Source: an uncultured Candidatus Saccharibacteria bacterium (GTDB lineage Bacteria > Patescibacteriota > Minisyncoccia > Phycocordibacterales > PALSA-1337). Taken from it: a DNA stretch of 64,000 bases. A program made the position numbers and the translations under genes. Positions 19,067 through 54,167 of the stretch are shown here, one piece after another. The notes below the pieces were generated by a model. The model did not search any database, had not been told where the DNA came from, and saw only the letters and a list, made by a program, of their open reading frames with translations. The stretch is from the NCBI GenBank assembly GCA_964412585.1, contig CAYPPJ010000002.1, positions 9,631-73,630 on the forward strand, in the 5' to 3' direction. Within the stretch, counting starts at the first letter, position 1, and each line of letters starts with the position of its first letter.

Positions 19067-19080
19067 GACACTAGTATAGC

Positions 19081-19203: not shown

Positions 19204-19239
19204 CTTGCAAAAGAGTGAGATTTCGTCTCTACTTATGAC

Positions 19240-23173: not shown

Positions 23174-23207
23174 GTGGCCTTTCTAGTTACTAATTACTAA
23201 TTACTTT

Positions 23208-25826
23208 CTATTTAAGCTCCCCCCAATTGTCCCCGATCGCTGCCGATGCCCTGAGCACGACACCCTTGGTATCTTTCGGGTCCATAACTGACTCCATAAT
23301 CTTCTCGATCTCACGCGCAACTTTTTCCGCTTTATCTTCACGAATCTCGTACACCAATTCATCGTGAACTTGGAGCAATGCATGCACATCGTCATCAAGC
23401 TTGTTCTGTGTGATATATGCGTCTATCTCAATCATGGCCAGCTTGATAACATCAGCCTCCGTGCCCTGAATAGGAGCATTGATTGCCATGCGCTCCGCAG
23501 CCGCTTTGATGAAAGGAATTTTGGAATTGATACCTTCAAAATAGCGTCGTCGCCCATAAAATGTCTCAGTATAGCCACGCGCTGCCGTCTCTTGTTTGAC
23601 TGAATCTAGATATGAAGCAAGTGTTGAAAATGTTTTGAAGTAATCTTCATAGAATTTCTGAGCCTCTGCGCGGCTGGTACCAATACTTTTTTGAAGCGAT
23701 GTCACGCCCATGCCATAAATGATGCCGAAGTTAATTATTTTTGCTTGGCGACGCATTTCGGAAGTAACCTGATCTTGCGACACACCAAACACGAATGATG
23801 CAACAGATGAATGAACATCCTTCCCTTCTTTGAAAATCTGTATCATCTTTTCATCCCCCGACAAAAAGGCGGCGATGCGCAATTCCATTTGAGAATAATC
23901 AAAACTGCACATCTTGAATCCCTTCTCAGCTACAAATGCGTGACGAATGGCTTTGCCGAGATCAGTGCGCACCGGGATATTTTGCAGGTTTGGATTGATT
24001 GATGCCATGCGACCCGTGGTTGTCCCCGCAGATACAAGGTGTGAATGGAGTCGTTTGTCTGCCCCAAGAAGTGGTGGGATAGCGTCGATGTAAGTTGAGA
24101 GCAATTTGGTAAGCTCGCGATAGTCAAAAATCATCGGCACAATCGGGTGTAGGTCGCGAAGCTTCTCAAGCTCAGACTCCTTTGTAGAACGTGCCCCACC
24201 AGCCGTTTTCTTCATATTCTTGGCCGTCAAATTGAGTTTATCAAAAAGAACCTCTCCAAGCTGTTTTGGTGAGCTAATGTTGAATTCCATACCCGCATGC
24301 TTCCAAATTTCCTTCTGCAATCGATCTGCCTCAGTGTGATATTTTTTCGAAAGATCCAACAGAAACGCATCATCAATCTTGATACCGCGCTTTTCCATTT
24401 TTTCGGTAATAGCAATCAAAGGAAGCTCAATGGTGTCATATATCTCTCGCACATTTCTTTTTTCAAGTTCTGCAAAAATAACTTTTTTTGCTTCTTCATA
24501 GGAATCAGTATTCGCAAAATTGAGGATGTCTTCCATGGTTGGATTGGTGACATTGGAATTGACGAGCCACAGAGCGACGGCGGTTTGGTTGAAATCTGTT
24601 GGGATGGCTTCGGAAACGAAACCTTCTTCACCCACGATTGGTTTTGCTCGCACCACGGAATCGCTCGCAAAACCATCTTTTCTCGGCGTCGCCTCAAGGG
24701 ATAAACCTAGAGTCTGGTTCCGCGACGCCTGCGAAGAGGGTTCAGAAGGTTTGTTCCCTTCGCCATCTTTCGACAGACTTACACCTGTTCGCTCTTTAGT
24801 AGAAACGATAGTCTTGTTTCCGGCGTCGGCACCACCCACCGCTTTTTGTAATCGTTGTACTAGTCTTCTAAACTCCAACTGTTGCCAGAGTGCCGTTACT
24901 TTCTTTATATCTAGACTTTCTTTGAATGTTTTCTCAGGTAATGTAAAGGTAATCGGCGCATCTCGACGAATAGTCGCGAGCATTTTACTGAATTCTGCTT
25001 CTTCCTTGTTATCTTTGAGCAACTGAATAATGCGCGGGGTTATACCAGCCTTAATAAACTTGTCATCATGACCTTTTTCGAGTTCCTCATACATCTCTTC
25101 GATAGTGCCGAAAGCCTGCAACAAAATAGTCGCTGTCTTTTCCCCGATACCTTTAACGCCGATAATATTATCTGACGGATCTCCGCGCAAACCTTTGTAG
25201 TCAGCAACGAGCTCGGGACCAAATCCGTAGCGTTCATTGACCATCTTTTCGTCATACATGATGGTATCTTTTATCCCCTTCTTGAATGTGTAGACCTGCA
25301 CTTCTTCTCCTTTGACGAGTTGGAGTGTGTCCATATCACCTGAAGCAATGATTATTTGGAGATTGGAGACTTGAGACTTGAGACTTGAAGTTCCTTTTGT
25401 CTTTTTTTCTTTCCCATTTCTTCCTGCTTCCTTATTCTTACCTGTCAGTTGCTCGACAATGGTGCCGAGCATATCATCGGCTTCAAATCCTGCTTTGTCA
25501 TAAATAGGAATATCCAGTGCCGCAAAAATATCTCTCGAGCGACCCATCTGTGCGACTAGGGCTTCATCAGGAGTTTTTCGTTGTGCCTTGTATTCTTTGT
25601 ACGCCTCATGACGATAGGTTGGGCCTTTGACGTCATAACATGCCACAACATAGTCAGGCTTCAGACTCTCAATAATGCCGATAAGCATCGCAGAAAGGCC
25701 GTATAGGGCCCCCGTCGGCTCACCACGCGTCGTAGCAAAGTCAGGGAGCGCATGATAGGCACGATGCAAGATAGCGTGCGCATCGAGTAAAACGAGGCGT
25801 TTCTGTTCAGTTTTTTTCTTGGCAGC
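23208..25826 (-). CDS. polA: DNA polymerase I (5'-3' exonuclease + polymerase; 3'-5' exo motifs not evident)
   Basis: LVLLDAHAILHRAYHA (5' nuclease), ... RRQAKIINFGIIYGMG (motif B), LQVHDELVYE (motif C); start set to MAAKKK. Confidence 0.95.
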   Translation of the reverse strand, partial: AAKKKTEQKRLVLLDAHAILHRAYHALPDFATTRGEPTGALYGLSAMLIGIIESLKPDYVVACYDVKGPTYRHEAYKEYKAQRKTPDEALVAQMGRSRDIFAALDIPIYDKAGFEADDMLGTIVEQLTGKNKEAGRNGKEKKTKGTSSLKSQVSNLQIIIASGDMDTLQLVKGEEVQVYTFKKGIKDTIMYDEKMVNERYGFGPELVADYKGLRGDPSDNIIGVKGIGEKTATILLQAFGTIEEMYEELEKGHDDKFIKAGITPRIIQLLKDNKEEAEFSKMLATIRRDAPITFTLPEKTFKESLDIKKVTALWQQLEFRRLVQRLQKAVGGADAGNKTIVSTKERTGVSLSKDGEGNKPSEPSSQASRNQTLGLSLEATPRKDGFASDSVVRAKPIVGEEGFVSEAIPTDFNQTAVALWLVNSNVTNPTMEDILNFANTDSYEEAKKVIFAELEKRNVREIYDTIELPLIAITEKMEKRGIKIDDAFLLDLSKKYHTEADRLQKEIWKHAGMEFNISSPKQLGEVLFDKLNLTAKNMKKTAGGARSTKESELEKLRDLHPIVPMIFDYRELTKLLSTYIDAIPPLLGADKRLHSHLVSAGTTTGRMASINPNLQNIPVRTDLGKAIRHAFVAEKGFKMCSFDYSQMELRIAAFLSGDEKMIQIFKEGKDVHSSVASFVFGVSQDQVTSEMRRQAKIINFGIIYGMGVTSLQKSIGTSRAEAQKFYEDYFKTFSTLASYLDSVKQETAARGYTETFYGRRRYFEGINSKIPFIKAAAERMAINAPIQGTEADVIKLAMIEIDAYITQNKLDDDVHALLQVHDELVYEIREDKAEKVAREIEKIMESVMDPKDTKGVVLRASAAIGDNWGELK

Positions 25827-29331: not shown

Positions 29332-29745
29332 AACAGAAAATAACAGCCAGTGTCAATTGCTTTTTGGCTGTGGATAGCGCTAGGCTACAAATTAGAGAAC
29401 GTTCGAACTATTCGAACATTCAAGCTAGAGAATCTCTAAGCAATATCTCGATGCATGATGCATCAAGCGAGGTAGAGTCCCGAGGATAATGCCAGTACGC
29501 ATGACCGAAGTTATGCAACCAATATGTCCTTAGCACTATACCCAAACCTGGGAAGGCCATTGCTTAGAGGTTCACGAGCTCGAATAAGGAAAATCACCTG
29601 GTGGTGACTATAATTTCGTCGAGTAAACAACTAAAAAAGCGACTCTCGCGAGTTCGCATTATGATTGTTGTGTTGGTACACTGTACCTATAGGAATCCCC
29701 GAGGGATCTATAGGTTCCCCAATACACTATCACAATCGTATTAAA

Positions 29746-31929: not shown

Positions 31930-32045
31930 GAGTAAAATACGGCACACATGTTTTTGTACATTGCACAGGCCGCTCTCGGCCGAGCATAGGAACTTTTCAG
32001 CAGAAAAGTATCCGCGTACAAAAACATGTGTGCCGTATTTTACTC
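31930..32045. repeat. Family-2 palindromic element, copy 1: 56-nt structured core inside a perfect 30-bp inverted repeat
   Basis: Arms gagtaaaatacggcacacatgtttttgtac / gtacaaaaacatgtgtgccgtattttactc. Loop attgc-[ggccg ctct cggcc]-gagcataggaa-[cttttc agca gaaaag]-tatccgc; core matches 54090..54143. Confidence 0.85.
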
Positions 32046-36905: not shown

Positions 36906-37129
36906 TGTATTTTTTTATTTTTATAAACCCAATCTACTATTAGGACTGTGAATATGTTGATATCTTCTAACCACCTATATTTCTCAACATATTTTGGAAG
37001 TAGTAATCTATTCTCAAACTGTTATCAATAATACCCAATTAAACTTACGTATCATCTGTGTATTACCTCCCTACTTACTCACATACTAACCATCCTCTAC
37101 ACACAAACTATTCACAGGTTTGTCCCCAC
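36906..37129. promoter_or_regulatory. AT-rich dnaA-dnaN intergenic region with degenerate DnaA-box-like 9-mers (candidate oriC segment)
   Basis: ~30% GC, 224 nt; motifs tgtgaatat, gttatcaata, ctattcacag resemble TTATCCACA with 1-2 mismatches. Confidence 0.4.
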
Positions 37130-38476
37130 TTATAACATAGTACGAACCTGGGTTATTTCCTGCGACAGGAGCTGATCGGTTTTTATCTCCTCTCGCATCT
37201 TTTCATACGAATGGATAACCGTGGTGTGGTCTCTACCACCCAATTTTTCTCCAATCGAAGGAAAAGATATCCCAAAATCCTCACGGAGGATATACATGAC
37301 TACCTGACGAGGGCGGACCACCTCTTTTCGGCGTGTTTTATTGTAGATACTGTCCTCATCTATGTTATAAAATTCAGAAACAATCTTAACCACATCCTTC
37401 ACAGACATCATTTTCTTTGGTTTTAGGTTGTTTTTGAGGATATTTCTAATCTCATTAAGATTCAATTCCCTATTTTTTAGCTGCGTCTGACAAGCAATCA
37501 CATTGATAATACCCTCTATCTCACGGATATTATCTTCAATTGACGTGGCAATATAATCAATAATTTCATCAGACAAAGTAATGTTGTGTGTGCCACACTT
37601 GGTGCGCACGATCATCATACGTGATTCTTGGTCAGGTTCAGGGATGTCGACAATCATTCCCATCGAGAAACGGCCTTTTAGACGATCTTCAAGCCCAGGT
37701 ATAACATTTGGGTGTTTATCTCCTGAAAAGACAAGCTGGCGTGCTGTATCGTAGAAAGTGTTGAAGAAATGGAACAATTCTTCCTGAAACTTCTCCTTAC
37801 TTGCGAAGAACTGGATATCATCCATGATAATAACGTCATATTTCCTATACTTATCCTTGAAAGCCTGCACTTTACCCTCTTGGATGGCTGTAAAAAGTTC
37901 AGAACCAAAGCGTTCAGAGGTCAAATAAAACACTTTCTTATCCGGATGTAACTTTTTTATCTGATTTCCAACCGCCTGGATGATGTGGGTCTTTCCTCTT
38001 CCGGTTTGTCCATAAATAAAGAGCGGGTTATATGAGTGCCCGGGGTTTTTTACAACCATTTGTGAGGCGGCATGGGCAAGTTCGTTGAAAGGACCAACAA
38101 CAAGGCTTTCAAAGGTATAGCGTGGATTGAGGTTATCTTCCTTGTTAATGTAGAAGTCCTGCAATGGCATAGCAATAGTGGGTGTAGGAGAAGACTCTTT
38201 GCGAGAATGCTGCCCGCCCTTGCCATCCTCTCGGACAATAACGTACTCCAGCGCTCGCACACGCTCATTCATCTGCCTTAGAATGCGTAAAATTGAGTTA
38301 TGGAACTTTTTTTGGAGCCACTCGTGGGTAAATGAGTTTGGAACGCCGAGGTAGATGGTGCCCTCGTCTTCACGAAGGATACGAATATCTTTGAACCACG
38401 TGGAAAAGTTTGCCTGAGATACAGCGCTTTCAATTTCTATGAGGGCAGTTTGCCACATTTTGCTGTGATCATTCAT
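37130..38476 (-). CDS. dnaA: chromosomal replication initiator protein DnaA
   Basis: AAA+ Walker A GQTGRGKTHIIQAVGNQ, Walker B IIMDDIQF, sensor motifs, C-terminal DNA-binding domain (RRKEVVRPRQVVMYIL). Confidence 0.97.
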   Translation of the reverse strand: MNDHSKMWQTALIEIESAVSQANFSTWFKDIRILREDEGTIYLGVPNSFTHEWLQKKFHNSILRILRQMNERVRALEYVIVREDGKGGQHSRKESSPTPTIAMPLQDFYINKEDNLNPRYTFESLVVGPFNELAHAASQMVVKNPGHSYNPLFIYGQTGRGKTHIIQAVGNQIKKLHPDKKVFYLTSERFGSELFTAIQEGKVQAFKDKYRKYDVIIMDDIQFFASKEKFQEELFHFFNTFYDTARQLVFSGDKHPNVIPGLEDRLKGRFSMGMIVDIPEPDQESRMMIVRTKCGTHNITLSDEIIDYIATSIEDNIREIEGIINVIACQTQLKNRELNLNEIRNILKNNLKPKKMMSVKDVVKIVSEFYNIDEDSIYNKTRRKEVVRPRQVVMYILREDFGISFPSIGEKLGGRDHTTVIHSYEKMREEIKTDQLLSQEITQVRTML

Positions 38477-38571
38477 GATAGGTGTAAATAGGTAGAGTAA
38501 GTATATACCTGTTTATAAATTTGCAAACTTGTGGAGAGTAAAAAAATATGTTGATAAGGTGGGGATAGGGA

Positions 38572-38680
38572 GAACAAGGGGCGGAACAGGTACTTTTTCA
38601 GCTACAATAAAAGATGCGGTATGCGAATTGAGTGGTAGCTACTATTTCCGCTTCAAAAGTACCTGTTCCGCCCCTTGTTC
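38572..38680. repeat. Family-1 palindromic element, copy B (in the dnaA-rpmH divergent region)
   Basis: Arms gaacaaggggcggaacaggtactttttcagc / gcttcaaaagtacctgttccgccccttgttc (26 bp perfect plus imperfect tip). Loop 38603..38649 tacaataaaagatgcggtatgcgaattgagtggtagctactatttcc. Confidence 0.85.
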
Positions 38681-38735
38681 GTGCAAAGCACTATTACTTG
38701 ATAAGAACACACAAATATGTAATAGTGTGTGAACT

Positions 38736-38870
38736 ATGTCATTCACATACAAACCAAAAAAGCGTAAGCGAGCAAAGTCCCACGGATTTCGTGTGCGCAT
38801 GAAGACGACAGGAGGACGCAATGTTCTTGCGCGTCGTCGAGCAAAAGGTCGTAAACGAGTCGCGGTGTAG
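38736..38870 (+). CDS. rpmH: 50S ribosomal protein L34
   Basis: [44 protein letters not shown], 44 aa; below the ORF-track length cutoff but unmistakable; followed by rnpA. Confidence 0.93.
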
Positions 38871-39255: not shown

Positions 39256-40008
39256 ATGTATCACACAATTATCTTCCTCCCTCTCTATAACGGGCTTGTC
39301 GCTATTATGAATATTCTGCCGTGGGCTGATATTGGTGTGGCCGTGATCATATTTACAGCCATTGTAAAGCTTGTGCTGTTTCCTCTTTCAAAATCTTCAC
39401 TTTTGACTCAGGTCAAAATGAAGGAGATTGAACCTGAGGCAAACAAGATTCGTGCCCAGTATGCAAGCGACAAGCAAGCCCAGACACTCAAAGTCATGGA
39501 GCTCTACAAGACAAGAGGGGTAAAACCATTTTCAGGTGTCCTACTCCTCCTCATTCAGCTACCCATACTCCTTGCGCTTATCTCAGTTTTTTACAAAATT
39601 ATTCCCTCGATTCACCCAGAGTTCCTCTATAGTTTCATATCAATGCCAGATATAAGCACTAAGATACATTTTCTAGGCATCATTGACCTTGCACAGAAGA
39701 GTTTTATTTTGTCACTTATTACAGCGATTGTTCAATATTTCCAGCTCCACTACTCGATTGCGACTCGCGCCCCAGCAACTGACGCAGTAGTAGATACTTC
39801 GGCGGCTGGTTCAATGGCTATGACAGCCAACTCAATGACAAAGAATATGAAGTTTTTCCTCCCTATTCTTGCGTTTGCATCAACATACTGGCTTATCCCA
39901 GCACAATTTCCTCAAGCCGCCTCGATTATCGCCATCTATTGGACGATCAGTACCCTCTTTACCTTAGGTCAGGAGCTTTATATTAGGAAGAAGTACGTAA
40001 GTAAATAG
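39256..40008 (+). CDS. yidC: membrane protein insertase YidC (short Gram-positive/CPR type)
   Basis: KMKEIEPEANKIRAQYASDKQAQTLKVMELYKTRGVKPFSG...LLIQLPILLAL - YidC/Oxa1 core. Confidence 0.9.
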   Translation: MYHTIIFLPLYNGLVAIMNILPWADIGVAVIIFTAIVKLVLFPLSKSSLLTQVKMKEIEPEANKIRAQYASDKQAQTLKVMELYKTRGVKPFSGVLLLLIQLPILLALISVFYKIIPSIHPEFLYSFISMPDISTKIHFLGIIDLAQKSFILSLITAIVQYFQLHYSIATRAPATDAVVDTSAAGSMAMTANSMTKNMKFFLPILAFASTYWLIPAQFPQAASIIAIYWTISTLFTLGQELYIRKKYVSK

Positions 40009-40114
40009 CACCGCAGGGGAGCACACATCCTCGCTGCTCCAATAAACGATGCGGTATGCAAATTATGTGGTAGCTACTATTTACGCAGCGAGGATGTGTG
40101 CTCCCCTGCGGTGC
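40008..40114. repeat. Family-1 palindromic element, copy C (between yidC stop and end of the T4SS-like operon)
   Basis: Perfect 30-bp arms gcaccgcaggggagcacacatcctcgctgc / gcagcgaggatgtgtgctcccctgcggtgc. Loop 40038..40084 tccaataaacgatgcggtatgcaaattatgtggtagctactatttac. Confidence 0.85.
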
Positions 40115-40122: not shown

Positions 40123-41442
40123 TTACTTTGCAGTGAGATCAAGAGACCAAAGAGAGAGGTCGTTCTTGTTCATGAATATTAGAAAACGATCCTTTTCATC
40201 AAGGCCAAGATTGAATGCGTCGATGATTCGGTCAGACGTGTCAACAATTGAGGATATTAGATGAACTTCCCCTGTCGTTGCACTAACCTGCCATATTTTA
40301 TCGACGAACGAAACGGTGCCTTTGTACCAATCATCTGGATAGGTCGCCGCGACTGGTTGGGCGGGAACGGCACAATAGATCATGTCTTTATAGAAGTTAC
40401 CCCAGACGCATTTGTCGGCAAGTGTGCGAATGACCGCGTCAGTTCCTTTCTTTTTATCAACATCAAATATACTTGAAACGATATTGTCCGCGCTTCCCGC
40501 CGCAGAAAGGAAGACCTTTTTCGCATCAACACTTACTTTTGTGCTCAAGCCAGGCAATGGACCAAGAATTTTCTTCCATACGCCTGTTTTTGCATTGACG
40601 AAGTAGAGAAAACCACGTTCGTCTGCCGCGCCCTTTGTTGTGAGAGCGATAGTGTTTTCTTCAGGCCACTCAGCATTTACTTGGGTCACTGGGGTGCTAA
40701 AGAGTGGTAGTGGGGCTGAACCGTCAAATTTGAGTATGTATCCCGCGCCAGCACCCTTTTCATTGATTAACACAAATACACGATCTTTTTTAGGGGATAC
40801 CGCAAAAGTCAGAATATTTTCTGGTAGGTTTTTTCCTTTGAGCTCATAAGGGGTCAGTGCAGAATCGGTTACTGATGTAGTTGTTGATACTTTTGGCATA
40901 ACTCGAGCCCGGAGCTCTGCCCAGATTCCTCCAACATTATTTTTTTCGGTTATACCAAAGGCCAAGAAAGACGAGAGGTTTTTGTTCCACACACTTTCAT
41001 ACATTTTAGGAACAACCGTATTCGAAATAGTTTTGATATCAAGAGTATTTCCGCGTGCCTCATAGACATTACCACGTCCCCTATCGATCCAACGGATAGC
41101 TGTTGTGGTGCTCGCAGCTTTTGCATTGACTGGACCTGTCGTACTTGCCCCATATCCCGCTACTGGCGTATTACTCAAAAGACGAAGGGTTGGAATTTTG
41201 AGCTGTGTACCAGAAGCTGTTGAACCGGTGCCATTTGTGCCTACACGAGGAGTACTTGTGCTCGTGCCTGACGATTGTGTTGGTGTACGACCAAATGGGG
41301 TGAAGCCATTTTGTTGTGTGTTTGATGGTTCGCCAAAGTCTGTTGTACCGATTCCCCGCACAAAGAAGTACCAGTATGCGCCACCAGCGATGATGAGTAG
41401 AATAATGAGGCCTATGATGTATTTTAGGGATTTTGAGGTCAT
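40123..41442 (-). CDS. membrane-anchored protein with S/T-rich linker and beta-propeller-like domain (last gene of T4SS-like operon)
   Basis: N-terminal TM IIGLIILLIIAGGAYWYFFV, then TPTQSSGTSTSTP... low complexity, then ~330-aa globular domain. Confidence 0.55.
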   Translation of the reverse strand: MTSKSLKYIIGLIILLIIAGGAYWYFFVRGIGTTDFGEPSNTQQNGFTPFGRTPTQSSGTSTSTPRVGTNGTGSTASGTQLKIPTLRLLSNTPVAGYGASTTGPVNAKAASTTTAIRWIDRGRGNVYEARGNTLDIKTISNTVVPKMYESVWNKNLSSFLAFGITEKNNVGGIWAELRARVMPKVSTTTSVTDSALTPYELKGKNLPENILTFAVSPKKDRVFVLINEKGAGAGYILKFDGSAPLPLFSTPVTQVNAEWPEENTIALTTKGAADERGFLYFVNAKTGVWKKILGPLPGLSTKVSVDAKKVFLSAAGSADNIVSSIFDVDKKKGTDAVIRTLADKCVWGNFYKDMIYCAVPAQPVAATYPDDWYKGTVSFVDKIWQVSATTGEVHLISSIVDTSDRIIDAFNLGLDEKDRFLIFMNKNDLSLWSLDLTAK

Positions 41443-42902
41443 GGTGTTCCGCCGAGGCCCGTTATAAGAGCACTGGTTTGTTTATCAAATAATTGCCTGA
41501 CTGAAGGGTCACTTATTGTTGGCAAAGCTGCAGTTCTCATTCTCTTTACATCAGCAATTGTTGTCTGGGCAGCCTCCTTGTAAAGTGTTAGTTCGCCCGC
41601 TTTCACGCCCGCATTTACAAATTGTGCTGCAGTGAAGCCGGCCGCACCGCCGAGTACACCCCCTGCCGATGTTCCTGCGATGGTGAAAAGGGTTGTGACA
41701 CTTGATTGGAAGGTATCCACCATAGCTTTTACCGATGGACTCTTTGACATACCGTACAGTATAGTGGAGTTTATCTTGGTTATAGCCTCCGCATATTTTT
41801 GATAATCAAGGACTTGTCCCGAAGCGACATCATTTCCAGATTTCTTCAACATTTCACTGTATTTTGTGCTCTCGTCAGCTATTTCTTTAAGGCACGTTGC
41901 TTGATCGTAATTATTTCCATAGTTCCACCACAAAAAACTACTTGATTCAGTGGTTATACCATAGCATTTTTGGATTATTGCGTTCATTATACCAACTCCC
42001 TGTTTAGTGGTGATTGATGCAGTCAGATCTTTTTGCTGGTTATTAATATCGGCAATACGTGCTGCAAGTGCCCGAGAAGCTGGGTCAAGTATAGATGACT
42101 GATCTATAAGTGATTGACATACGTTGGTTGTTCCCGCGGGGACAATTCGATCGTCGATACTATCCATACCGTTTGGATCCGGAACGAATGAATTGACTGA
42201 ATCAATCAATTGTTTACATAAGTCAGCTTTTTGTTGGTCGAGTTCGTCGGATTTTTTCTTTGCCTCAGCAACGGATTTTATAAGATCCATATTATCGCTT
42301 CGGAACTTGCTTGCATCGCGGTTTAGTTGGTCAAATATACCGCTCAATGCCTGAGGTTCATATTTTATATCAAGTGGTTTTACCAACGTCGTTGGTATAT
42401 CAACGAGCCTCGGGTCAACTGTTTTCAGAATAAGATATGAACACAGCACAAGTAATAGGCCGAGCAACGCATTTTGTATTTTTTTAATACCATCAGTTTT
42501 TTGATTATACGCATCGGAGCTCATATACTCGAAACCGCCCCAGACAATCATAAATACCGCCGCAACAGCGCAGAGTGCAATAAGAAGGTTGAATGCATAC
42601 TGTACATAATCTTTAAATTTGACTGAAGTGATTTGTGTCCCTGTTTGGCAATCTACGGCCGGTGTGGTGATTTTTCCGGTAGCATCCTTGACGGCCGGGC
42701 TTGGAACGCATGGCAATGGTTCTAGAAGCGTATAACTAGATTCAGTGTTACAGACGGGGTTGTTTTTTGCATTTGCCGCACTACAATCTGGCCCCGTGGT
42801 TTGTGCCGAAGTGATTGATGTTGAACCAAGTAAAATAACTGCCATTAAGGCTATAAGAGGGATGTTGCAAACTATTTTTCTAAGTATGGAGTATGTATTC
42901 AT
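41439..42902 (-). CDS. secreted/membrane protein with Cys-rich N-terminal region, two central TM helices and C-terminal coiled-coil (T4SS-like operon)
   Basis: Signal peptide, PDCSAANAKNNPVCNTE..., TM pair VQYAFNLLIALCAVAAVFMIVWGGF / IQNALLGLLLVLCSYLIL; 4-nt overlap with downstream gene. Confidence 0.55.
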   Translation of the reverse strand: MNTYSILRKIVCNIPLIALMAVILLGSTSITSAQTTGPDCSAANAKNNPVCNTESSYTLLEPLPCVPSPAVKDATGKITTPAVDCQTGTQITSVKFKDYVQYAFNLLIALCAVAAVFMIVWGGFEYMSSDAYNQKTDGIKKIQNALLGLLLVLCSYLILKTVDPRLVDIPTTLVKPLDIKYEPQALSGIFDQLNRDASKFRSDNMDLIKSVAEAKKKSDELDQQKADLCKQLIDSVNSFVPDPNGMDSIDDRIVPAGTTNVCQSLIDQSSILDPASRALAARIADINNQQKDLTASITTKQGVGIMNAIIQKCYGITTESSSFLWWNYGNNYDQATCLKEIADESTKYSEMLKKSGNDVASGQVLDYQKYAEAITKINSTILYGMSKSPSVKAMVDTFQSSVTTLFTIAGTSAGGVLGGAAGFTAAQFVNAGVKAGELTLYKEAAQTTIADVKRMRTAALPTISDPSVRQLFDKQTSALITGLGGTP

Positions 42903-42908
42903 AGGTAA

Positions 42909-43931
42909 TTAAAAATTCAACCCCTCCCCTTGTGTTGGTGTTCTATTAAATTGCACCGAAAAAGTGGCGTCTGTACCTTGAAGTATTTTCTCAATATTAC
43001 GAATACTCACTTGGACATTTGATGATCCTGTAGAGTCGTCTGGTGCACGTAACACAACTGACTCTTTGTTCGTCAAGCTTGACCTTCCTGAATTGTTAAG
43101 ACCCCACGACCAATCAAGATCACCAGTTCCCACGCGAGGCTTATTGAACCCAAAAGGAACGGCGAGGACACTCGTCTCTTTGTTTGAACCAATGCGCAAA
43201 GTTGAACCTATCGATCTGTTAAAGAGGGTTCCATATAAAGGATCCTCTATATAAAATTGTATCTCAGGACCTCGGGTTATTACTTGAGTATAGGCGCTTG
43301 CGGATGAATCATTATCTTTTGGCCACACAGTTACTGAAATATCATATGGTCGAGGCACTACATCACCCACAAGCACAATAGATTGTTTATTATATCCAGA
43401 CTGGTCTTCAAGGGCTCTCCCGTTCTTTTTCCATTGGTACACTAGTGCAGAAGGACTGTATTCGATACCAGCTGAATTGGCAATGTGAGGTACCGCAATG
43501 ATGGTTACTGAATTTTGATATACAGCTGGAATCTTCCCTTTAAAAAATGGAGGAGTATAGCCATCAGTTTCTAATAGCAGATCGACTGACCCAGAACCAA
43601 TAATGATTGAAGATTTAACAATTACCCCATCAACATTGGTGGCCGTTACTTCAATTGATATTTTCTTTCCTAAAGCAGGAGCCACAACGTCAAACGATGT
43701 CATTCCCGCACCTGACTTCGAAAGCTTTCCATCGACATACCAGGATACTTTGGAAGAATTAATATCTATTGTATAGCTCCGAGCGGTGACGGTGATAGTT
43801 TGTCCCGGAGAAGGGTTGTTACTGGATGGTGATAATTCTAGTCCACCAATGGAAGTTGGCACTTGAGCATGTGCAACAGCCGAAAACATAAAAGCGCACA
43901 GTAGAATTACCCCAAAGAAACGAGATTTCAT
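42909..43931 (-). CDS. secreted Ig-like/beta-repeat protein (T4SS-like operon)
   Basis: Start placed at MKSRFFGVILLCAFMFSAVAHAQ (signal peptide); the longer ORF to 44024 would overlap the upstream gene. Confidence 0.5.
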   Translation of the reverse strand: MKSRFFGVILLCAFMFSAVAHAQVPTSIGGLELSPSSNNPSPGQTITVTARSYTIDINSSKVSWYVDGKLSKSGAGMTSFDVVAPALGKKISIEVTATNVDGVIVKSSIIIGSGSVDLLLETDGYTPPFFKGKIPAVYQNSVTIIAVPHIANSAGIEYSPSALVYQWKKNGRALEDQSGYNKQSIVLVGDVVPRPYDISVTVWPKDNDSSASAYTQVITRGPEIQFYIEDPLYGTLFNRSIGSTLRIGSNKETSVLAVPFGFNKPRVGTGDLDWSWGLNNSGRSSLTNKESVVLRAPDDSTGSSNVQVSIRNIEKILQGTDATFSVQFNRTPTQGEGLNF

Positions 43932-43986
43932 TAGCTTTATTTTACCACGCCCTTTCAATACAGTCTGCAGTAATTTCGGGGATAAT

Positions 43987-44421
43987 TTATTTCGGTAACG
44001 AGCCGTTTGGTGGTCTGAAATCACCCTGGTGAATAGGGTTTTTCGGTGGAGCGTGTCTCATCCCCTCAACGTTCATTTTTGGGCCCATTTTTCCTTTAGT
44101 TAGTACATTGGCTGAAATCCCCGTTTTATCCTCAAGTCGCGTTGTGCCTACTATGATGAGCATTGCGACAAAAATGGTAGGCAATTCCTGCACACCTGGA
44201 ATAAGCTCCGCTATTGTGGAGATAATTTTTGTAACTCCCTGTTTTCCGCTGACAATTCCCATACCCTGTCTCCAAAAGTACACACTCGCAAGGACCCAAA
44301 ATATAGGACCGACAAAGTCGCCGACAAGAGGGATTAAGGTGAATAGGTCAGCAACAAGGGCCGCAACAACCAAAATGGCCCCTGCGGCGTTAGTAATTCG
44401 GTTCTTTTTGGATGTATCCAC
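43987..44421 (-). CDS. small polytopic membrane protein (T4SS-like operon)
   Basis: 3-4 TM helices (ILVVAALVADLFTLIPLVGDFVGPIFWVLASVYFW...). Confidence 0.5.
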   Translation of the reverse strand: MDTSKKNRITNAAGAILVVAALVADLFTLIPLVGDFVGPIFWVLASVYFWRQGMGIVSGKQGVTKIISTIAELIPGVQELPTIFVAMLIIVGTTRLEDKTGISANVLTKGKMGPKMNVEGMRHAPPKNPIHQGDFRPPNGSLPK

Positions 44422-44458
44422 GGTTCAATTATAACAAACTAACCTTTGGATTGTGACA

Positions 44459-46273
44459 CTACCCGGCCTGCTCCAGTTGCCTCTTTGCATCCTTGATAGC
44501 CAACACCTGAGCTGGATTTGTAGTAATAATCTGATCTTCTGTATATGATCCAACCACTTTAATAGCGACGTGTTTGAGCCCTACGAAGAAAATGCCCTCC
44601 CCCACATCAGACTCGAGGAGTAGGTATTTTTCCTCATCCGTGAGGTTGAATGTTTTTTGGATATGATCTATGACTGTTGGCGATTGTTTCAAAAGGATCT
44701 GGATGGATGAGTTTGTCACAATAGGCAATCCATACGGTGAATTCAAGAAGTCATCCACGTCTTGGGTGATGGTAGCAAGACCAAGGAAATATTTACGTCC
44801 GCGCTTTGCCAAACCAAAGAGGAAGGATGCGGTATCTTCGGATTTCATCATCCACCACGCCTCATCAATGACAAGGAGACGGCGCTTGAGATTTTTACGA
44901 ATAGCATTCCATATATAGTGTGTGACGATATACATTGCAACCGGCTTGAGCTCATCTTCCATGTCGCGGAGCGAAAATACCACGAACTTCTTGTTAATAT
45001 CGACATTCGAAGGTCTATTTATGAAGCCGGCCCACGTACCTTTTGTATACTTACTGAGGCGCTGTACGAGTGAGTCACCACCCTCCATGCCTGCGAGGAC
45101 GAGCTCAAAGTCTGAGAGTAATGGCGGTTCTACAGTACGAAAATCTGCCTCAGGCGTGATATCTTTGAGGGCATAGGTCTCACTGATCGCTCGGTCGATG
45201 ATCGCGTCCTCTTCTTGGGTGAGTCCGCCTAACATGATACGGAAGAGGCCGACCAGGTTGATGATGTTTGAACGCAACACATCGGCTGCAGATTCATCTT
45301 CACGAGGTATTGGTAGGTCAAATGGGTTGATATGATGTTCTGAGTTCAAGGAAATATTAAAGTACTTCCCTCCAGTTGCTTCGGCCATATACTCGTATTC
45401 TTTTTCTGGGTCGATAACTATGACATCTGTATCGAACATCAGGGTACGGAGAATTTCGAGCTTGGTTGCGTATGATTTACCAGCGCCGGCCGTTGCGAAG
45501 GTGACAGAGTTGTAATTTTCTAGGGAAAATCGATCAAAGAGCACCAATGAAGAGTTGTGGCGGTTGATACCGTATAGAATGCCTTTGTCTGAGGTGAGGT
45601 CAAATGAGACAAATGGAAAGAGTGACGATAGTGGCGATGAATTGAGCTTCGAGTGTACTGTCAATTGGTCATCTGCAATCGGAATAACTGATTTGAAGCC
45701 TTGTTCTTGCTGGAATAGGGCAGGTTTGACATACACTAGCTTTGATTCGAGGATAGATTTGATCTCGGACTCAAGCTTGTCGAGCTCACCTTCAGAGTCG
45801 GCGAAAAGTGTAATGTAGACACCCACATCAAATAGGTGTTCCTGTGCCTGCATGAGCTGATCACGGAGCTGCTCGAGATCTTGGTATGCAGTATCCAATG
45901 CCGGATCACGCACCAATCCCTTCTCTTCCCTACGCAAAATCTGGCTCTGAACTTCAGCAACCTTCTTTTGGAAATGGCGGAGAATCTTTGCCGTATCAAC
46001 CGGATGGATGAATATTGAGATATTAAAAATCTTATCGAGGTTAATGATCGGTGCAAACCAGCTTTCGTCCAAGAAACGTGGATATGAAATGACAAAAAGC
46101 GTACGGCCTACCTTTTCACCAAGATTGAGGTCTTTTGGGCTTATTTTGAGTGCGGATGGAGAAATGACATCTTTGAGCTCCAACACCCCAGCCTGATAGA
46201 TTTCCTCGGGCAGGATGGAGACGATAGGTGATGAGTCGTCTTTCTTTCCAAATAAATTACCAAAAAATGACAT
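44459..46273 (-). CDS. VirB4/TrbE/CagE-family T4SS ATPase, main (ATPase) part
   Basis: Walker A TFATAGAGKSYATK, Walker B LLVIDEAWWMM, AAA_10/CagE_TrbE_VirB architecture; 604 aa. Confidence 0.85.
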   Translation of the reverse strand: MSFFGNLFGKKDDSSPIVSILPEEIYQAGVLELKDVISPSALKISPKDLNLGEKVGRTLFVISYPRFLDESWFAPIINLDKIFNISIFIHPVDTAKILRHFQKKVAEVQSQILRREEKGLVRDPALDTAYQDLEQLRDQLMQAQEHLFDVGVYITLFADSEGELDKLESEIKSILESKLVYVKPALFQQEQGFKSVIPIADDQLTVHSKLNSSPLSSLFPFVSFDLTSDKGILYGINRHNSSLVLFDRFSLENYNSVTFATAGAGKSYATKLEILRTLMFDTDVIVIDPEKEYEYMAEATGGKYFNISLNSEHHINPFDLPIPREDESAADVLRSNIINLVGLFRIMLGGLTQEEDAIIDRAISETYALKDITPEADFRTVEPPLLSDFELVLAGMEGGDSLVQRLSKYTKGTWAGFINRPSNVDINKKFVVFSLRDMEDELKPVAMYIVTHYIWNAIRKNLKRRLLVIDEAWWMMKSEDTASFLFGLAKRGRKYFLGLATITQDVDDFLNSPYGLPIVTNSSIQILLKQSPTVIDHIQKTFNLTDEEKYLLLESDVGEGIFFVGLKHVAIKVVGSYTEDQIITTNPAQVLAIKDAKRQLEQAG

Positions 46274-46277
46274 ACGT

Positions 46278-46922
46278 TTAGGTTATCTGTATAGGCTTCT
46301 CTGTTTCTCCTGGGTTGAAGAGTTTGTAGAACAATTCTACCACCTCTTCTGTCCCAAGTTCTGCGGCTCGAATACCACAGCGTACCAGCCCCTGTTCGAC
46401 CACAGCGACACGTTGTTCAAGTTGGCTGCGGTATTCCTGAAATTTTGCATCAGCACTTGCCGTCTGTTCTTTTGCCGTGCCCTTGCTGGGAAATATATTC
46501 GAAATCGGATTTTTGCTTGCGGTCATGAGTGGTGGGTCATAGGGTATGACGACAAAGAAGCTCTTTGACATGATGTTGGTGTTTTCAACAAAGGTTTTGA
46601 TGAACTCTATATATTCACGTACCTGGATTTTCATGAGTTCCGTAGCCTGTTCTTTGTAGCGGTCTTCGAGGAGAGCGATGTAGGGTCTAATATCCAGCTT
46701 TTTTGATTGAACGAATATCTGGATAGAAAAATCGAGCGAATTAACGAAGTTCTGGAACTGCATCAGAATAGAACTTTGCTCATCTTGGGATTTCAAGGCA
46801 AAGTTGAGAGATGATACCAAGACGATTGCGCGCATACCGCCATTCTTGAGGATAATGACACCGTCGCGTATCTCCTGTATCGGAATAAAATCTTGGGTTG
46901 TTTTTGATGATACGGCAGCCAT
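46278..46922 (-). CDS. VirB4-family N-terminal domain encoded as a separate ORF
   Basis: IPIQEIRDGVIILKNGGMRAIVLVSSLNFALKSQDEQSSI... matches the first ~200 aa of VirB4/TrbE proteins; stops 4 nt before the ATG of the 604-aa ORF (taa-acgt-atg). Confidence 0.6.
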   Translation of the reverse strand: MAAVSSKTTQDFIPIQEIRDGVIILKNGGMRAIVLVSSLNFALKSQDEQSSILMQFQNFVNSLDFSIQIFVQSKKLDIRPYIALLEDRYKEQATELMKIQVREYIEFIKTFVENTNIMSKSFFVVIPYDPPLMTASKNPISNIFPSKGTAKEQTASADAKFQEYRSQLEQRVAVVEQGLVRCGIRAAELGTEEVVELFYKLFNPGETEKPIQIT

Positions 46923-47356
46923 TATCGTTGATTTTTATTTGAATACATACTTTCTTTGATATCCAGGCTCCAGCTTAGGTCTTTCAATTTGCTGTCAGAA
47001 ATTTTCGGAACCATGATAGAGGCATAGTTTTTAACATCTGTAGCCTCCGCCTCGGTCGTTTGAGGCGTTGTTCTATCCGCCTTTCTCCATATATAGAGCT
47101 TACTGCCGAGATAGTATTTAAATGCAGCTTCGACAACAGTTATAAAAGGTTTGTTATTTATCTTATAGAAAGCGAGTGCGCCTGATATGGCCATAATCAA
47201 GATGATCGGTACAATGGCCAGGGTTACGTTTCCAAGAAATACATAGACTACGAAAGACAGTCCTCCCCCACCAGCCAAGTAGATAAACTGCTTGAGCGTG
47301 AGTGGCCCGAAGATCTTATCCTCGACTTCTATAAATTGGGGAACTTGAAATCGCAT
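46922..47356 (-). CDS. PrgI/VirB3-like small 2-TM T4SS protein
   Basis: MRFQVPQFIEVEDKIFGPLTLKQFIYL + two TM helices; sits directly upstream of VirB4 as in Gram-positive T4SS loci. Confidence 0.55.
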   Translation of the reverse strand: MRFQVPQFIEVEDKIFGPLTLKQFIYLAGGGGLSFVVYVFLGNVTLAIVPIILIMAISGALAFYKINNKPFITVVEAAFKYYLGSKLYIWRKADRTTPQTTEAEATDVKNYASIMVPKISDSKLKDLSWSLDIKESMYSNKNQR

Positions 47357-47395
47357 TGCTCATATTATAGCGTCAAGCGAGGATATGGGAAAGCG

Positions 47396-48088
47396 TTATT
47401 TAATAGGCTCTCGGTATGGATCAGGTCCTCCAGATGATTTTGGTGTAGGAACCGTGATTTTTGGCTTTTGAACCGCAGTCGGCGTTGCCACTACATTTTG
47501 CATAGACTGCCCTGCGGGTTTACTGAGTAGGAGGTCTACAAGTGGCTCTGTATGGCTTTCCTCCTTTTTGGTAGATTTGGCCGCACTAGTCTCACTAAAT
47601 GGACCCGCTTCCTCCTCTCCTACAGGTAAGTTTTGTGGTGGTTGACTGGTGTGAGCTGTGCTTGAGGGTGGATTTTCAAGTCCGGCAAGGATGTTTCCCC
47701 TGTCAGCAGGAGTGACCATCTTGTTTTCTGATTCTGGTTCAGGTTTTTCAATGGTGATGCCACCCATACGCTCTAGATTTTCGCTTGTCTCTGGAGCCGG
47801 GCTGGTTTGTTTTTGCAAATTTGTTTTTAGTACACTAAATACATTTGAGTTAATTTCCACCACAACTTTATCCGCGAGTTCCTGGTCGATAGAGAGTCGG
47901 GTCATTATGTGTCTAGTAAAGTCTGCAGAGGTACTGACACCTTTCAACACATCGCATACTTCAGCATACAGTTCTCCCATTTGGTCGATATTCAACCCTA
48001 ACTTTTTTGAGGTAATTTCCAGGGTATCATAAAACTGCGGTGATGATATGTAGCTTTTTATTTGTTCCAATTGGTTATTTTTGTCCAT
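47396..48088 (-). CDS. hypothetical cytoplasmic protein with P/S/E-rich C-terminus (T4SS-like operon)
   Basis: No TM; ORF in operon context only. Confidence 0.45.
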   Translation of the reverse strand: MDKNNQLEQIKSYISSPQFYDTLEITSKKLGLNIDQMGELYAEVCDVLKGVSTSADFTRHIMTRLSIDQELADKVVVEINSNVFSVLKTNLQKQTSPAPETSENLERMGGITIEKPEPESENKMVTPADRGNILAGLENPPSSTAHTSQPPQNLPVGEEEAGPFSETSAAKSTKKEESHTEPLVDLLLSKPAGQSMQNVVATPTAVQKPKITVPTPKSSGGPDPYREPIK

Positions 48089-48099
48089 AATTGTTCATG

Positions 48100-50139
48100 C
48101 TAATTCCACCAGTGGTGATTTTCAGGCTTATTCATAAATGACAATGCCTTATGAGTTGAACCTCCGCTATGTCTTGTATGGTTTGTGTCCCAAAAGGCAA
48201 TCGCCTCGCCTATCGCTTTCTTTTTAGTATTATCAATACCCTCGTCGTTCATTTCTTTGAGTTGTGAAGGCTTCAAGAAGGCAATAACTGCTGGGCGTAC
48301 CACATCATCAAGACCCATCAGTTCTTTACCACTCATACCGTTTACGATTGCCTCGACAGTTTTCGAGCCACCAACACCTACCGGGTTCTTCTCCACCGCT
48401 TCGTGCAAGGCCTCCTCTCTCGTCTTGGAGAGTGTGCGTTTGTCGTCATCACTCATGTTACCCATCATAAACTTAAGCGTCTCGACATCGTCATTTTTTG
48501 CAGCGGTGACCAGTGCCGCCTTACGTGCGTCAACAATCTCTGCCTGATCATCGGCTGAAATATCATCAGATTTCGCAATCGCCTCAAAGTCTGATTTTTT
48601 GAGATGTTTAACAATATTTGGATCTTTCAAAACTTTTGAACCTAGTGCAAGACGTTCCTTCTCGTTCATCTTACTCATAGCATCTTTGTATTCTTGTGAT
48701 GTAGTACTCTTGGACGACATCAGGCTCTGTAAATGAGAGCCACGGTCAAGTTCGCGTTGCTTCTTTGTTACTTCTTTTTGAGTCTTTGCTATATCTTCGT
48801 ATGACCTGTCACTACCAAATTTAGCTTTCGCAGCTGCTCCTGTTGTTACTGCCCTCAAGTCACGACCAAACAGGCTGTTGCCAAATCGACTTTTGTCCAG
48901 TTTTTTATCCAAATAATTACCCGCATACCCAATCGTTCCTCTACCCGCTATACCCCCCGTCCACCCACCAACTTTTTTCCAAATGGCATCTGCTCCGACC
49001 TTATCTGCCCACTTTGGCATCATTGCCCCCATACTCATTGCACCTAATAGAGGTAGATTGAGCATAACGATCACGAGGACTGCGTTCACGGCAAGAATCA
49101 TGAGATCACTCAAGAAATTCCCACTTGGGCTGAGTGATCCAACGTATCCATCTTTGAATATTGATGTAGAGGTGAGTACTGAGAGCGCAAAATACATCAA
49201 GAGCAAATACACTGGCATGAATATGAGCTGTTCTTTGAGGTATTTTCTCCACAAACCTGCATATTGATCAATTTCTGGCACAACATAGGACGCAAAGAAA
49301 ATAGGTGAAAACGCCAGCAAGAATATCAAAATAACAAAACGAACAATAAAGGCCAGTGACGCCAAGAATAAGCTCAGTGCCGTAGTGACCATGATAATAA
49401 TAGAGGTGATGCCAGTGAGGATAATCTTGAGTGAGGTGCTCACAAAGCCATTTCCAGACTGTATTACTTTCTGGCCATTTGCACTCAAAGTGCCATCAGG
49501 GTTGTATAAACGGGTCACACCAAGAGATTGCATGAATATGGTCGAAATGCCCCCGTCGGCATTGCTTGTGTTTATAAATTTCTTCATATCCAACGATCCG
49601 TCCAGTGTTTGTTGAGGTGCGATTGCGCTATACAATTGCAAGGAGACGATATTGGACACATCGATTGCCAATCCAGTCAGGAAAAAACTGAAGTTGATGA
49701 GAATGCCTGCAACGACAATATTCTTGATGCGATCGCCAAACTTTGGGCTCTCAAATCCGGTGATGAGCTGTATCGCAGAGTATAAGAGTCCGAAAATAAT
49801 GAACATACCTGAGATATCTCTGATCGCCTTCCATACGGTATAAATAGCATCAGTTGATGCTACGAACTCCTTGATATGCATTGTCAGATTGATCGAGAAG
49901 TTCATGAGCGAACCAGCCAGATAGACGAGCCAGCTTGCCATGGTCTGGAAAGAGTAGAAGAGGTTAGCCAAACTATCGGCAATAAGTGTTGTCAGATTGA
50001 AACTGAACATATTTCCCTCTGCATGGGCGATCGGAGTCAGTGCGATTGTTACGGCCAACACACATACAACGACAAACCCAGCACGTGTGAAGTGTCGAGA
50101 GGTTAAAATATGTATTGATCTAATAATGCGTGACAACAT
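48100..50139 (-). CDS. VirB6/TrbL-like polytopic membrane protein with C-terminal coiled-coil/hydrophilic domain
   Basis: Signal/TM at N-terminus, ~7 further TM helices over the first 400 aa, then 280-aa charged domain; size and topology match VirB6/TrbL/PrgH-type channel proteins. Confidence 0.6.
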   Translation of the reverse strand: MLSRIIRSIHILTSRHFTRAGFVVVCVLAVTIALTPIAHAEGNMFSFNLTTLIADSLANLFYSFQTMASWLVYLAGSLMNFSINLTMHIKEFVASTDAIYTVWKAIRDISGMFIIFGLLYSAIQLITGFESPKFGDRIKNIVVAGILINFSFFLTGLAIDVSNIVSLQLYSAIAPQQTLDGSLDMKKFINTSNADGGISTIFMQSLGVTRLYNPDGTLSANGQKVIQSGNGFVSTSLKIILTGITSIIIMVTTALSLFLASLAFIVRFVILIFLLAFSPIFFASYVVPEIDQYAGLWRKYLKEQLIFMPVYLLLMYFALSVLTSTSIFKDGYVGSLSPSGNFLSDLMILAVNAVLVIVMLNLPLLGAMSMGAMMPKWADKVGADAIWKKVGGWTGGIAGRGTIGYAGNYLDKKLDKSRFGNSLFGRDLRAVTTGAAAKAKFGSDRSYEDIAKTQKEVTKKQRELDRGSHLQSLMSSKSTTSQEYKDAMSKMNEKERLALGSKVLKDPNIVKHLKKSDFEAIAKSDDISADDQAEIVDARKAALVTAAKNDDVETLKFMMGNMSDDDKRTLSKTREEALHEAVEKNPVGVGGSKTVEAIVNGMSGKELMGLDDVVRPAVIAFLKPSQLKEMNDEGIDNTKKKAIGEAIAFWDTNHTRHSGGSTHKALSFMNKPENHHWWN

Positions 50140-53250: not shown

Positions 53251-54036
53251 CTATATTTTGAGCCATTCTTCGACTTTTAGGTCCTCAGCACGGACGTTTT
53301 TGTCGAATCCTGCCTTTTCCCAAATAGCCCCAATTTCTTCCTTTGAGAGGACATCTTCTAAATTTCTGGCCAAAAGTTTCCTTTTGTGAGCAAACCCCGC
53401 TTTAACAATGCTGAAAAAGCGCTTAACATCAAGGTTTTTTGAGGTAAATGCGATATTTGATATATGTTCAATCGATAAAATTGCTGAATCTACCGTCGGT
53501 GGAGGTGTAAACGCTCCCGGAGGAACTTTGGCTATAATATGAGGCGTGCCAAAGGCTTTTACCGAAATTGAAAGAATACTTTCCTTGCCATCTCGTGCAC
53601 AGATTCGCTCAGCAACCTCTTTTTGCACCAGTAATACCATACGAGTCGGCCGTGGCCCGTGTTCAAGAAATTTTTCCAATATGGCACCGGTGATGTAGTA
53701 CGGAATGTTGGCGACGAGTGCGAATGATCCATCCAAAATAGATTCCGTTGATAAGGTGTGTTCGTACAATACATCCCCAGAAATAATTTTTAATGCACCA
53801 TTTTTGATTTCAATGAAAAAATCCTGCTCGAGCATAGCAATGGCGCGTTGATCTTTTTCAACAGCGATGACATGTGCACCCGCGCTCAATAATGCGCGAG
53901 TTAATACTCCAGTACCGGGTCCAATCTCAAGTACTGTCTCCCCTTTTTGTATGTGTGACGCAGAAATAATCTGCTCAAGCACATGTGTTGAGTTCAAGAA
54001 ATGTTGCCCCAGTGATTTTTTCGCAGTTAATTTCAT
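53251..54036 (-). CDS. rsmA: 16S rRNA (adenine1518/1519-N6)-dimethyltransferase RsmA/KsgA
   Basis: KKSLGQHFLNSTHVLEQII ... VLEIGPGTGVLTRALL ... NIPYYIT motifs. Confidence 0.93.
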   Translation of the reverse strand: MKLTAKKSLGQHFLNSTHVLEQIISASHIQKGETVLEIGPGTGVLTRALLSAGAHVIAVEKDQRAIAMLEQDFFIEIKNGALKIISGDVLYEHTLSTESILDGSFALVANIPYYITGAILEKFLEHGPRPTRMVLLVQKEVAERICARDGKESILSISVKAFGTPHIIAKVPPGAFTPPPTVDSAILSIEHISNIAFTSKNLDVKRFFSIVKAGFAHKRKLLARNLEDVLSKEEIGAIWEKAGFDKNVRAEDLKVEEWLKI

Positions 54037-54065: not shown

Positions 54066-54167
54066 GTGAGTTGAGTATGGGTGAAGATACATTGCGGAGC
54101 GCGACGGCGCGAGCATAGCAATTTTTCAGCAGAAAAATATGCGCGTATCTGAACCCATGCTCGACGA
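54066..54167. repeat. Family-2 palindromic element, copy 2 (between pcrA end and rsmA start)
   Basis: Imperfect 18-24-bp arms gagtatgggtgaagatac / gtatctgaacccatgctc around core attgcggagcgcgacggcgcgagcatagcaatttttcagcagaaaaatatgcgc. Confidence 0.8.

Follow-up and report, generated by a model that had tools for sequence, protein, structure and literature searches.

The hairpin in the dnaA-rpmH spacer (38572-38680; positions are those of the window, the whole 64,000-nucleotide stretch of DNA analysed here, unless a relative is named) contains a conserved core of 47 nucleotides (nt). This core is a discrete unit: it occurs at four unrelated intergenic sites in two Taylorbacteria genomes that are only distantly related, each time between long complementary arms of different sequence. 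Comparison of orthologous sites in relatives shows that elements of this kind are gained and lost rapidly at a small number of intergenic hot spots. Based on these observations we propose, with moderate confidence, that the 47-nt core is a small selfish DNA module and that the hairpin beside dnaA is one of its insertions, in which it caps a perfect palindrome of about 30 bp whose arms are maintained by template switching. Its proximity to the replication origin appears to be that of a tenant occupying an unconstrained gap in the locus, and a role as a component of the origin is not supported.

The element, termed copy B of family 1 (F1), is 109 nt long and comprises a 31-nt left arm (38572-38602, GAACAAGGGGCGGAACAGGTACTTTTTCAGC), the 47-nt F1 core on the plus strand (38603-38649, TACAATAAAAGATGCGGTATGCGAATTGAGTGGTAGCTACTATTTCC) and a right arm, again of 31 nt, at 38650-38680. 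Perfect complementarity extends over the outer 26 bp of the two arms; a 2x2 mismatch and then three more pairs follow beside the core. Folded as single-stranded DNA the element reaches -34.8 kcal/mol (z = -8.2 against shuffled sequences), and a 22-nt stretch of its arm occurs twice in the window, namely in the two arms, against an expectation of zero. The earlier sequence description of this region, made in a first-pass annotation, reads correctly apart from one-base offsets: the element was rightly located between dnaA (37130-38476, minus strand, with the start codon ending at 38476) and rpmH (38736-38870, plus strand, ATG at 38736), but the gaps on the two sides are 95 and 55 nt rather than 96 and 56 nt, and the DnaA-box-like site TGTTGATAA, which is indeed present with one mismatch to the DnaA box, lies at 38549-38557 and not at 38548-38556. 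The short palindrome reported on the rpmH side (cactattac at 38689-38697 and gtaatagtg at 38719-38727) overlaps with its second half the -10 hexamer of rpmH. Promoters for both genes were placed by a consensus scan, and both fall in conserved sequence: that of rpmH is predicted at 38698-38726 on the plus strand (TTGATA-17-AATAGT, with a TG upstream of the -10) and begins 18 nt past the end of copy B, and that of dnaA is predicted at 38527-38500 on the minus strand (TTTGCA-16-TATACT), inside a conserved dnaA-proximal block. Copy B is located between these predicted promoters, upstream of both, and is probably outside both neighbouring transcripts. It occupies the sole unconstrained stretch of the spacer, between the block containing the dnaA promoter and DnaA boxes on one side and the rpmH promoter on the other.

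We collected four copies of the F1 core, three from the window (A, B and C) and one (D) from the Candidatus Taylorbacteria metagenome-assembled genome (MAG) JAHFMB010000008 (L001, 3058-3174). Copy A (19090-19200, plus strand) has perfect 32-bp arms and is flanked by an amidase gene on the minus strand (17813-19066) and, divergent from it, fpg on the plus strand (19240-20178), and copy C (40008-40114, plus strand) has perfect 30-bp arms and is situated between the stop codon of yidC and that of a convergent gene. The arms of copies A to D pair over 32, 26+3, 30 and 30+3 bp respectively, and those of A and C are unrelated in sequence to those of the other copies; among all four copies no significant mutual similarity of arms was detected, the best pair being B-D with p of about 0.01-0.03. 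The cores, on the other hand, are 87-93% identical and follow the pattern T(A/C)CAATAAAnGATGnGGTATGC-n7-GTGGTAGCTACTATTT(C/A)C, in which CAATAAAnGATGnGGTATGC-n7-GTGGTAGCTACTATTT is invariant, and they include an 8-bp palindrome, GTAGCTAC. Taken alone, the core folds worse than its shuffled versions (z from +0.65 to +1.4) and differently in each copy; what is conserved in it is primary sequence and not structure. The genomes that share it are only distantly related, with PilB fragments showing 40-75% protein identity between L001 and the window, and the DnaA of the window, which stems from a Taylorbacteria population sampled in several JGI metagenomes, clusters with proteins named Candidatus Taylorbacteria. 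All four copies are neighboured by housekeeping genes, which include dnaA, rpmH, yidC, the amidase gene, fpg and pilM, and in this small sample the orientation of the cores obeys no consistent rule relative to flanking genes or to the inferred direction of replication. A scan of genome contigs for further copies gave one match; scans of metagenome contigs and of viral, plasmid and phage collections gave none, and about 6 kb of new sequence past the window ends contained no further element. Two other readings of the core were considered and rejected. Three copies can be read as a coding start, MRYAxxVVATI, with AGG/CGG and GCG/GCA differences that look synonymous, and we dismiss this as coincidence because in copy B a stop follows the fifth codon, and farther downstream the frames continue into arms of unrelated sequence. 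Likewise, the core contains no sigma-70-like site that would make it a promoter.

A second family (F2) has the same layout of unique long arms around a conserved core. Its first copy in the window (31930-32045, plus strand), downstream of yebC, has 30-bp perfect arms and a 56-nt core, which is built as a three-way junction composed of ATTGCACAG, a P2 hairpin, GAGCATAG, a P3 mini-hairpin (ACTTTTCAGCAGAAAAGT) and CGC. The second (54073-54162, plus strand), with weaker 18-nt arms, lies between uvrD and ksgA, both on the minus strand. Further copies were found in relatives (L014, 8360-8489; L026, 9784-9907 and 16478-16646; L023, 7867-8035), and together these yield the core consensus ATTKCACAG, P2, CGAGmATAr, P3, yGC, in which the inner hairpins P2 and P3 covary. 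In the orthologues from L023 and L026 the tips of P2 and P3 are expanded, giving a core of 107 nt against 56 nt in the window copy. F2 cores occur in both orientations relative to neighbouring genes. A 13-mer of the second window copy (CGAGCATAGCAAT) recurs about 260 nt away within the ksgA coding region (53824-53864; nhmmer E 0.11), which may be due to chance or to partial duplication.

The dynamics of these elements became apparent from the dnaA regions of relatives whose DnaA proteins are 84-95.5% identical to that of the window. The dnaA-rpmH site holds a long hairpin in six of the ten lineages, and all six hairpins are different and have different cores: the F1 core in the window, 33-nt arms with a 95-nt core in L023 (DnaA 95.5% identical), 35-nt arms with an F2-type core in L026 (94.9%), 38-nt arms with a 40-nt core in L010 (92%), another hairpin with another core in L014 (87%), and a further arm sequence, at a contig end, in L030 (93%). 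The site is empty in the remaining four, with no hairpin in L012, L016 and L028/L029 (Rifle genome GCA_001821055.1). The F1 element of copy B is accordingly absent or replaced at the orthologous site in every relative examined. Its surroundings behave quite differently: the flanks are conserved right up to both element boundaries, the dnaA-proximal block (38498-38567, minus strand) is nearly invariant and the element begins where this conservation ends, and on the other side the window, L010, L016, L023, L026 and L029 all retain a conserved rpmH promoter region. At the yidC site the window has F1 and L014 has F2, while L012 contains another element, L010 a classical short terminator and L026 a spacer of just 2 bp, relative to which the arms and core of copy C amount to a net insertion of about 110 nt. 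The same pattern of turnover was observed downstream of yebC, and it is from these differing contents at the orthologous dnaA-rpmH, yidC and yebC sites that we deduce the fast gain and loss of elements. In L023, alone among the relatives, a gene encoding a Bro-N domain (8669-9529) is inserted between yebC and ruvB. Many short-read contigs end at or inside the dnaA-rpmH hairpin, with ends 60-130 nt upstream of dnaA (L007, L011, L015, L025 and L030), and palindromes evidently break short-read assemblies at this locus.

The arms themselves are distinctive in their pairing. In 15 elements taken together there are 14 mismatches among 519 pairs, nearly all of them close to the arm ends (within a few pairs), and the roughly 450 mid-arm pairs include no G·T. 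When the orthologous arms at the yebC site are compared between the window and L023/L026, four inner differences are seen, each of which is mirrored on the opposite arm. A highly conserved structured RNA predicted elsewhere in the window (29418-29585) provides a contrast, with about 10 G·U among its 65 pairs and ordinary compensatory changes. The near-perfect, wobble-free arms, the mirrored changes and the unstructured core favour a DNA palindrome over an RNA under selection. Within the population, L008 and L009 show an A to G SNP in arm B that has no matching change on the other arm; on the plus strand, the strand of the core, it would create a G·U, which speaks weakly against the DNA-palindrome reading. 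Arm lengths range from 26 to 45 bp. Alternating purine/pyrimidine runs of at least 8 nt (e.g. GTGTGCAC and GCACACATG) were counted in the arms of 15 long hairpins from the window, L001, L010, L012, L014, L023 and L026, and are present in 9 of the 15 as compared to 9.7% of random window 34-mers, an enrichment that is partly due to a shared inner-arm motif, CGGCACAyATGTTTTTGTAC, seen with different cores. Searches for a source of the arm sequences were negative throughout: exact 20-22-mers of arms A, B and C and of the F2 arm, sought as captured spacer-like DNA, had no match in IMG/VR, blastn-short of the arms against the collected DNA gave nothing beyond chance, and inverted or direct copies of an element's own flanks gave no signal within +-150 nt of 14 elements.

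The position of copy B invites a reading in which it contributes functionally to oriC or to dnaA/rpmH control, for instance as a cruciform or DnaA-binding module. The locus is indeed origin-proximal, as the first-pass annotation had suggested: cumulative GC skew (G-C), which it had named as a check, has its minimum at about 37-38 kb, a property of the locus that is not specific to the element, four DnaA-box-like 9-mers (starting at 38510, 38530, 38549 and 38560, all in the same orientation) are found within 65 nt of copy B, and some long hairpin is present in this spacer in most lineages. However, all four boxes fall within the conserved dnaA-proximal block (38498-38567), which is not part of the element, and no 9-mer with up to two mismatches to TTATCCACA occurs within 38572-38680. 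Box-like 9-mers are also not enriched across the window, with 19 found against 17 expected at up to one mismatch. The main conserved cluster is instead in the dnaA-dnaN spacer (36906-37129), which in its 224 bp contains eight DnaA-box-like sites and combines the densest box cluster (at up to two mismatches) with the lowest GC (0.317) of the window; boxes in it are conserved in five relatives, its A-rich end next to dnaN is conserved in relatives too, and we consider it the probable oriC. Other F1 copies lie 1.4 and 19 kb away in unrelated contexts. The near-box TTATCCGCA that had been pointed out in the core of copy A does exist (19141-19149), but it is incidental: its position is within the variable patch of 7 nt in the core, and none of the other three copies has it. 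Comparison of the dnaA-rpmH spacers of relatives, also proposed earlier, went in part against an origin function, as they have unrelated sequence in the same spacer: the sequence of the element is not conserved at the site, and four lineages have no hairpin there at all. The comparisons largely refute the origin reading, and we regard it as very improbable.

Two further alternatives concern what the hairpins might do for their hosts. One is that they are genes for, or parts of, structured or antisense RNAs, in which the long stem, possibly an RNase III substrate, presents the 47-nt loop, with the conserved single-stranded loop pairing with a target or binding a protein. The strong conservation of the F1 core between distant genomes and its unstructured state, like that of an exposed recognition loop, would suit such a role, as would the complete covariation of the stems, the G·U that the arm-B SNP creates on the strand of the core, and the F2 core, whose covarying inner hairpins resemble a three-way-junction RNA. 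Yet G·U pairs are lacking in the middle of the arms and are numerous in the conserved structured RNA of the same genome, copies A and B each lie on the upstream side of the two promoters predicted next to them, the core has no promoter-like site, F2 cores occur in both orientations relative to flanking genes, and the element is dispensable in close relatives. There is also no Rfam family for it: in searches with Rfam 15 only tRNAs reach the gathering score in the window, F1 and F2 match no family, and even at permissive E-values copy B matches generic microRNA hairpin models only, far below threshold. We therefore view an RNA role as unlikely. About as doubtful, to us, is the idea that the long hairpins are host-selected punctuation with the cores as passengers, that is, bidirectional terminators or mRNA-end stabilisers at the 3' ends of genes, and barriers or supercoil sinks between divergent promoters. 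It can draw on the yidC site, where a classical bidirectional terminator in L010 takes exactly the position that long hairpins occupy in the window, L012 and L014, on several elements that abut stop codons, and on the repeated filling of the same three intergenic sites in different lineages. However, the short GC-rich stem with a T-tract that characterises an intrinsic terminator is not seen in these elements: there is no T-run after any arm, and no terminator-like site was found in 38400-38800 or 19000-19300. Copies A and B, being upstream of promoters, have nothing to terminate, relatives do without a hairpin at dnaA-rpmH (four of them) or make do with the 2-bp yidC spacer (L026), and the conservation of the 47-nt core across genomes would be left unexplained.

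We return to the insertion of the F1 module into a hairpin tip, for which copy B offers a possible glimpse of the target. The first-pass annotation had noted that the inner arms beside the core, tactttttcagc and gcttcaaaagta, resemble the family-2 hairpin, which we confirm, and had tentatively suggested that the 47-nt module may have been inserted in the tip of such a hairpin. Of the 31 nt in the left arm of copy B, 25 can be aligned with the F2 core, through the 3' strand of P2, the junction, the 5' strand of P3 and the loop CAGC, and the alignment ends exactly at the boundary between arm and core. Its best match is the F2 element of L026, the occupant of the very same dnaA-rpmH site. The similarity has p = 0.002 by shuffles, 0.004 against random 31-mers of the window and 0.0095 against 31-mers containing a T5 or A5 run, and becomes borderline, about 0.05-0.1, when corrected for the ten or so arms tested; in 196 comparisons of arms with cores, the top four are all arm B against the four F2 cores. 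A whole-window search with an nhmmer F2 profile did not detect arm B, so it is the per-arm tests that carry this claim. In addition, copy B lacks the remaining parts of the F2 core, and each of its sides falls short of the length seen in L026; an insertion in place would require later palindromisation of one side plus deletions. Independent support for the addition of sequence at tips comes from the expanded P2 and P3 tips of the F2 orthologues in L023 and L026. Judged by these alignments, a nested insertion of the F1 core into the tip of an F2-type hairpin is moderately supported.

We envisage that the F1 module lands in the single-stranded tips of existing hairpins, and that the target for copy B would have been the P3 mini-hairpin of an F2 element that formerly occupied this site, as one still does in L026. 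Intrastrand template switching during replication, a process that perfects and extends quasi-palindromes and can invert their spacer, would then generate the arms and preserve their perfect complementarity at the DNA level, and copy B would have no role in replication initiation. Template switching has been found to create, perfect and maintain stems in single steps (PMC8794818), and it is reported in PMC8604942 to homogenise arms and invert spacers as well. It fits the present elements because of their near-perfect arms free of mid-arm G·T, their mirrored changes and the occurrence of cores in both orientations. Certain observations sit less comfortably with this scheme. It does not account for the arms of copies A, C and D, as these are not copies of their present flanks, arm lengths keep to a narrow range (26-45 bp), which suggests a ruler and is not what gradual template switching would predict, arm B resembles F2 to a modest degree, and the F1 sample consists of four copies. 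A different possibility, which we rate as rather improbable, is that F1 and its sister cores are the cargo of an undescribed integration mechanism of CPR bacteria, which would target hairpin tips or exposed single-stranded DNA and build a new perfect palindrome of about 30-40 bp at each event, a kind of inverted flank synthesis in place of direct target-site duplication. Such palindrome-building integration would give different perfect arms of similar length in every copy of one family, and would have the same sites refilled by different hairpins in lineages whose DnaA proteins differ by only about 5%. Neither the 64 kb nor the flanks of the elements in relatives revealed a partner enzyme such as a transposase, reverse transcriptase or nuclease, and direct reading of the flanks revealed no direct repeat, and so no target-site duplication, adjoining any of the four F1 copies.

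Among known systems, the REP/REPIN sequences mobilised by RAYT transposases (IS200-like Y1; PMC3116915, PMC3733652) come close to F1 in being short, non-coding, intergenic hairpin repeats with many copies, which insert into or next to one another as F1-type elements probably do. In REPINs, however, it is the paired arms (the REPs) that are conserved, whereas F1 has unique, perfect arms of 26-45 bp and a conserved central loop. Within the unpaired F1 core, CTAC directly follows a GTAG, which is also the tag of one REP superfamily (PMC3733652), and this resemblance serves as a lead only; F1 has no conserved palindromic paired unit of 20-40 bp with a GTAG or CGTC tag, and there is no RAYT gene in the window. 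MITEs such as Correia/NEMIS, ERIC and RPE (PMC3184786, PMC2229807) are comparable in size (about 100-150 bp), in their non-coding and intergenic nature, long hairpins and presence/absence polymorphism, but possess family-specific terminal inverted repeats and direct target-site duplications, and our tests found neither in F1. A precedent for landing inside hairpins is provided by insertion sequences that target palindromes, namely IS1397, ISKpn1 and IS621, which enter REPs (PMC1525189); these are full elements with their own transposase, unlike F1, which is a 47-nt module without coding capacity. Template-switch (quasi-palindrome) mutagenesis (PMC8794818, PMC7202029) accounts for perfect arms, for mirrored changes without G·T intermediates and for either orientation of the core, but it is a mutational process and not an element, and it leaves the spread of the core and the uniform arm length unexplained. 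Integron attC sites share with F1 imperfect-to-perfect inverted repeats, a folded single strand as the functional form and variation of sequence among copies, but conserve the base of the stem (the R''/R' boxes) and vary the centre, which is the reverse of F1, where the base of the stem varies from copy to copy and there is neither an integrase nor a cassette context. The palindromes of Nematomorpha mitochondria (PMC6649704) are, like the arms described here, long perfect inverted repeats that differ between lineages; that both stay perfect while diverging implies concerted evolution of the arms. They differ from F1 in being inside organelle coding genes and in lacking a conserved central module. 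Retrons are distinguished by an adjacent reverse-transcriptase gene, which was found at none of the four F1 copies. A literature search returned no description of such elements in Patescibacteria. We would classify F1 as a variant among bacterial palindromic repeats; its unusual design, with unique perfect arms around a conserved loop, reverses the usual logic of such repeats.

These results imply that a conspicuous hairpin beside dnaA should not be annotated as oriC, the origin signal in this lineage being the conserved box block together with the dnaA-dnaN spacer, and that palindrome-caused assembly breaks matter when MAGs are closed and origins are called. They also reveal that in these reduced CPR genomes elements turn over very rapidly at a small number of intergenic hot spots. 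Construction of the arms during insertion would amount to a new transposition chemistry; if they were shaped by template switching, these genomes would constitute a natural laboratory for that process.

Several other features of the window merit mention. The structured element referred to above, about 165 nt long (29418-29585, with the RNA sense on the minus strand), is located between the pilB/109-aa genes and ruvB and is highly conserved in all relatives (L010, 18382-18551; L012, 19046-19209; L014, 18226-18375; L016, 18442-18607; L026, about 18650-18820). Its RNAalifold model has compensatory changes at six of the pairs and includes a UUCG-type loop. Even with the cutoff relaxed to E <= 1 no Rfam family matches it, and it looks like an unnamed non-coding RNA. 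An AT-rich repeat, TTACTAGTTACTAATTACTA, which is unrelated to F1 and F2, occurs at two intergenic positions (15833-15902 and 23180-23210), once as an imperfect inverted pair. A single open reading frame of 2416 amino acids (8057-15307), for which precomputed annotation records fibronectin-III and glycoside hydrolase family 9 matches, is very large for a reduced CPR genome. Finally, a type IV secretion-like cluster (41439-50139), coding for PrgI, a TraC-like protein, a VirB4/TraG P-loop ATPase and a T4SS pilin, directly adjoins yidC-rnpA-rpmH-dnaA in every relative.
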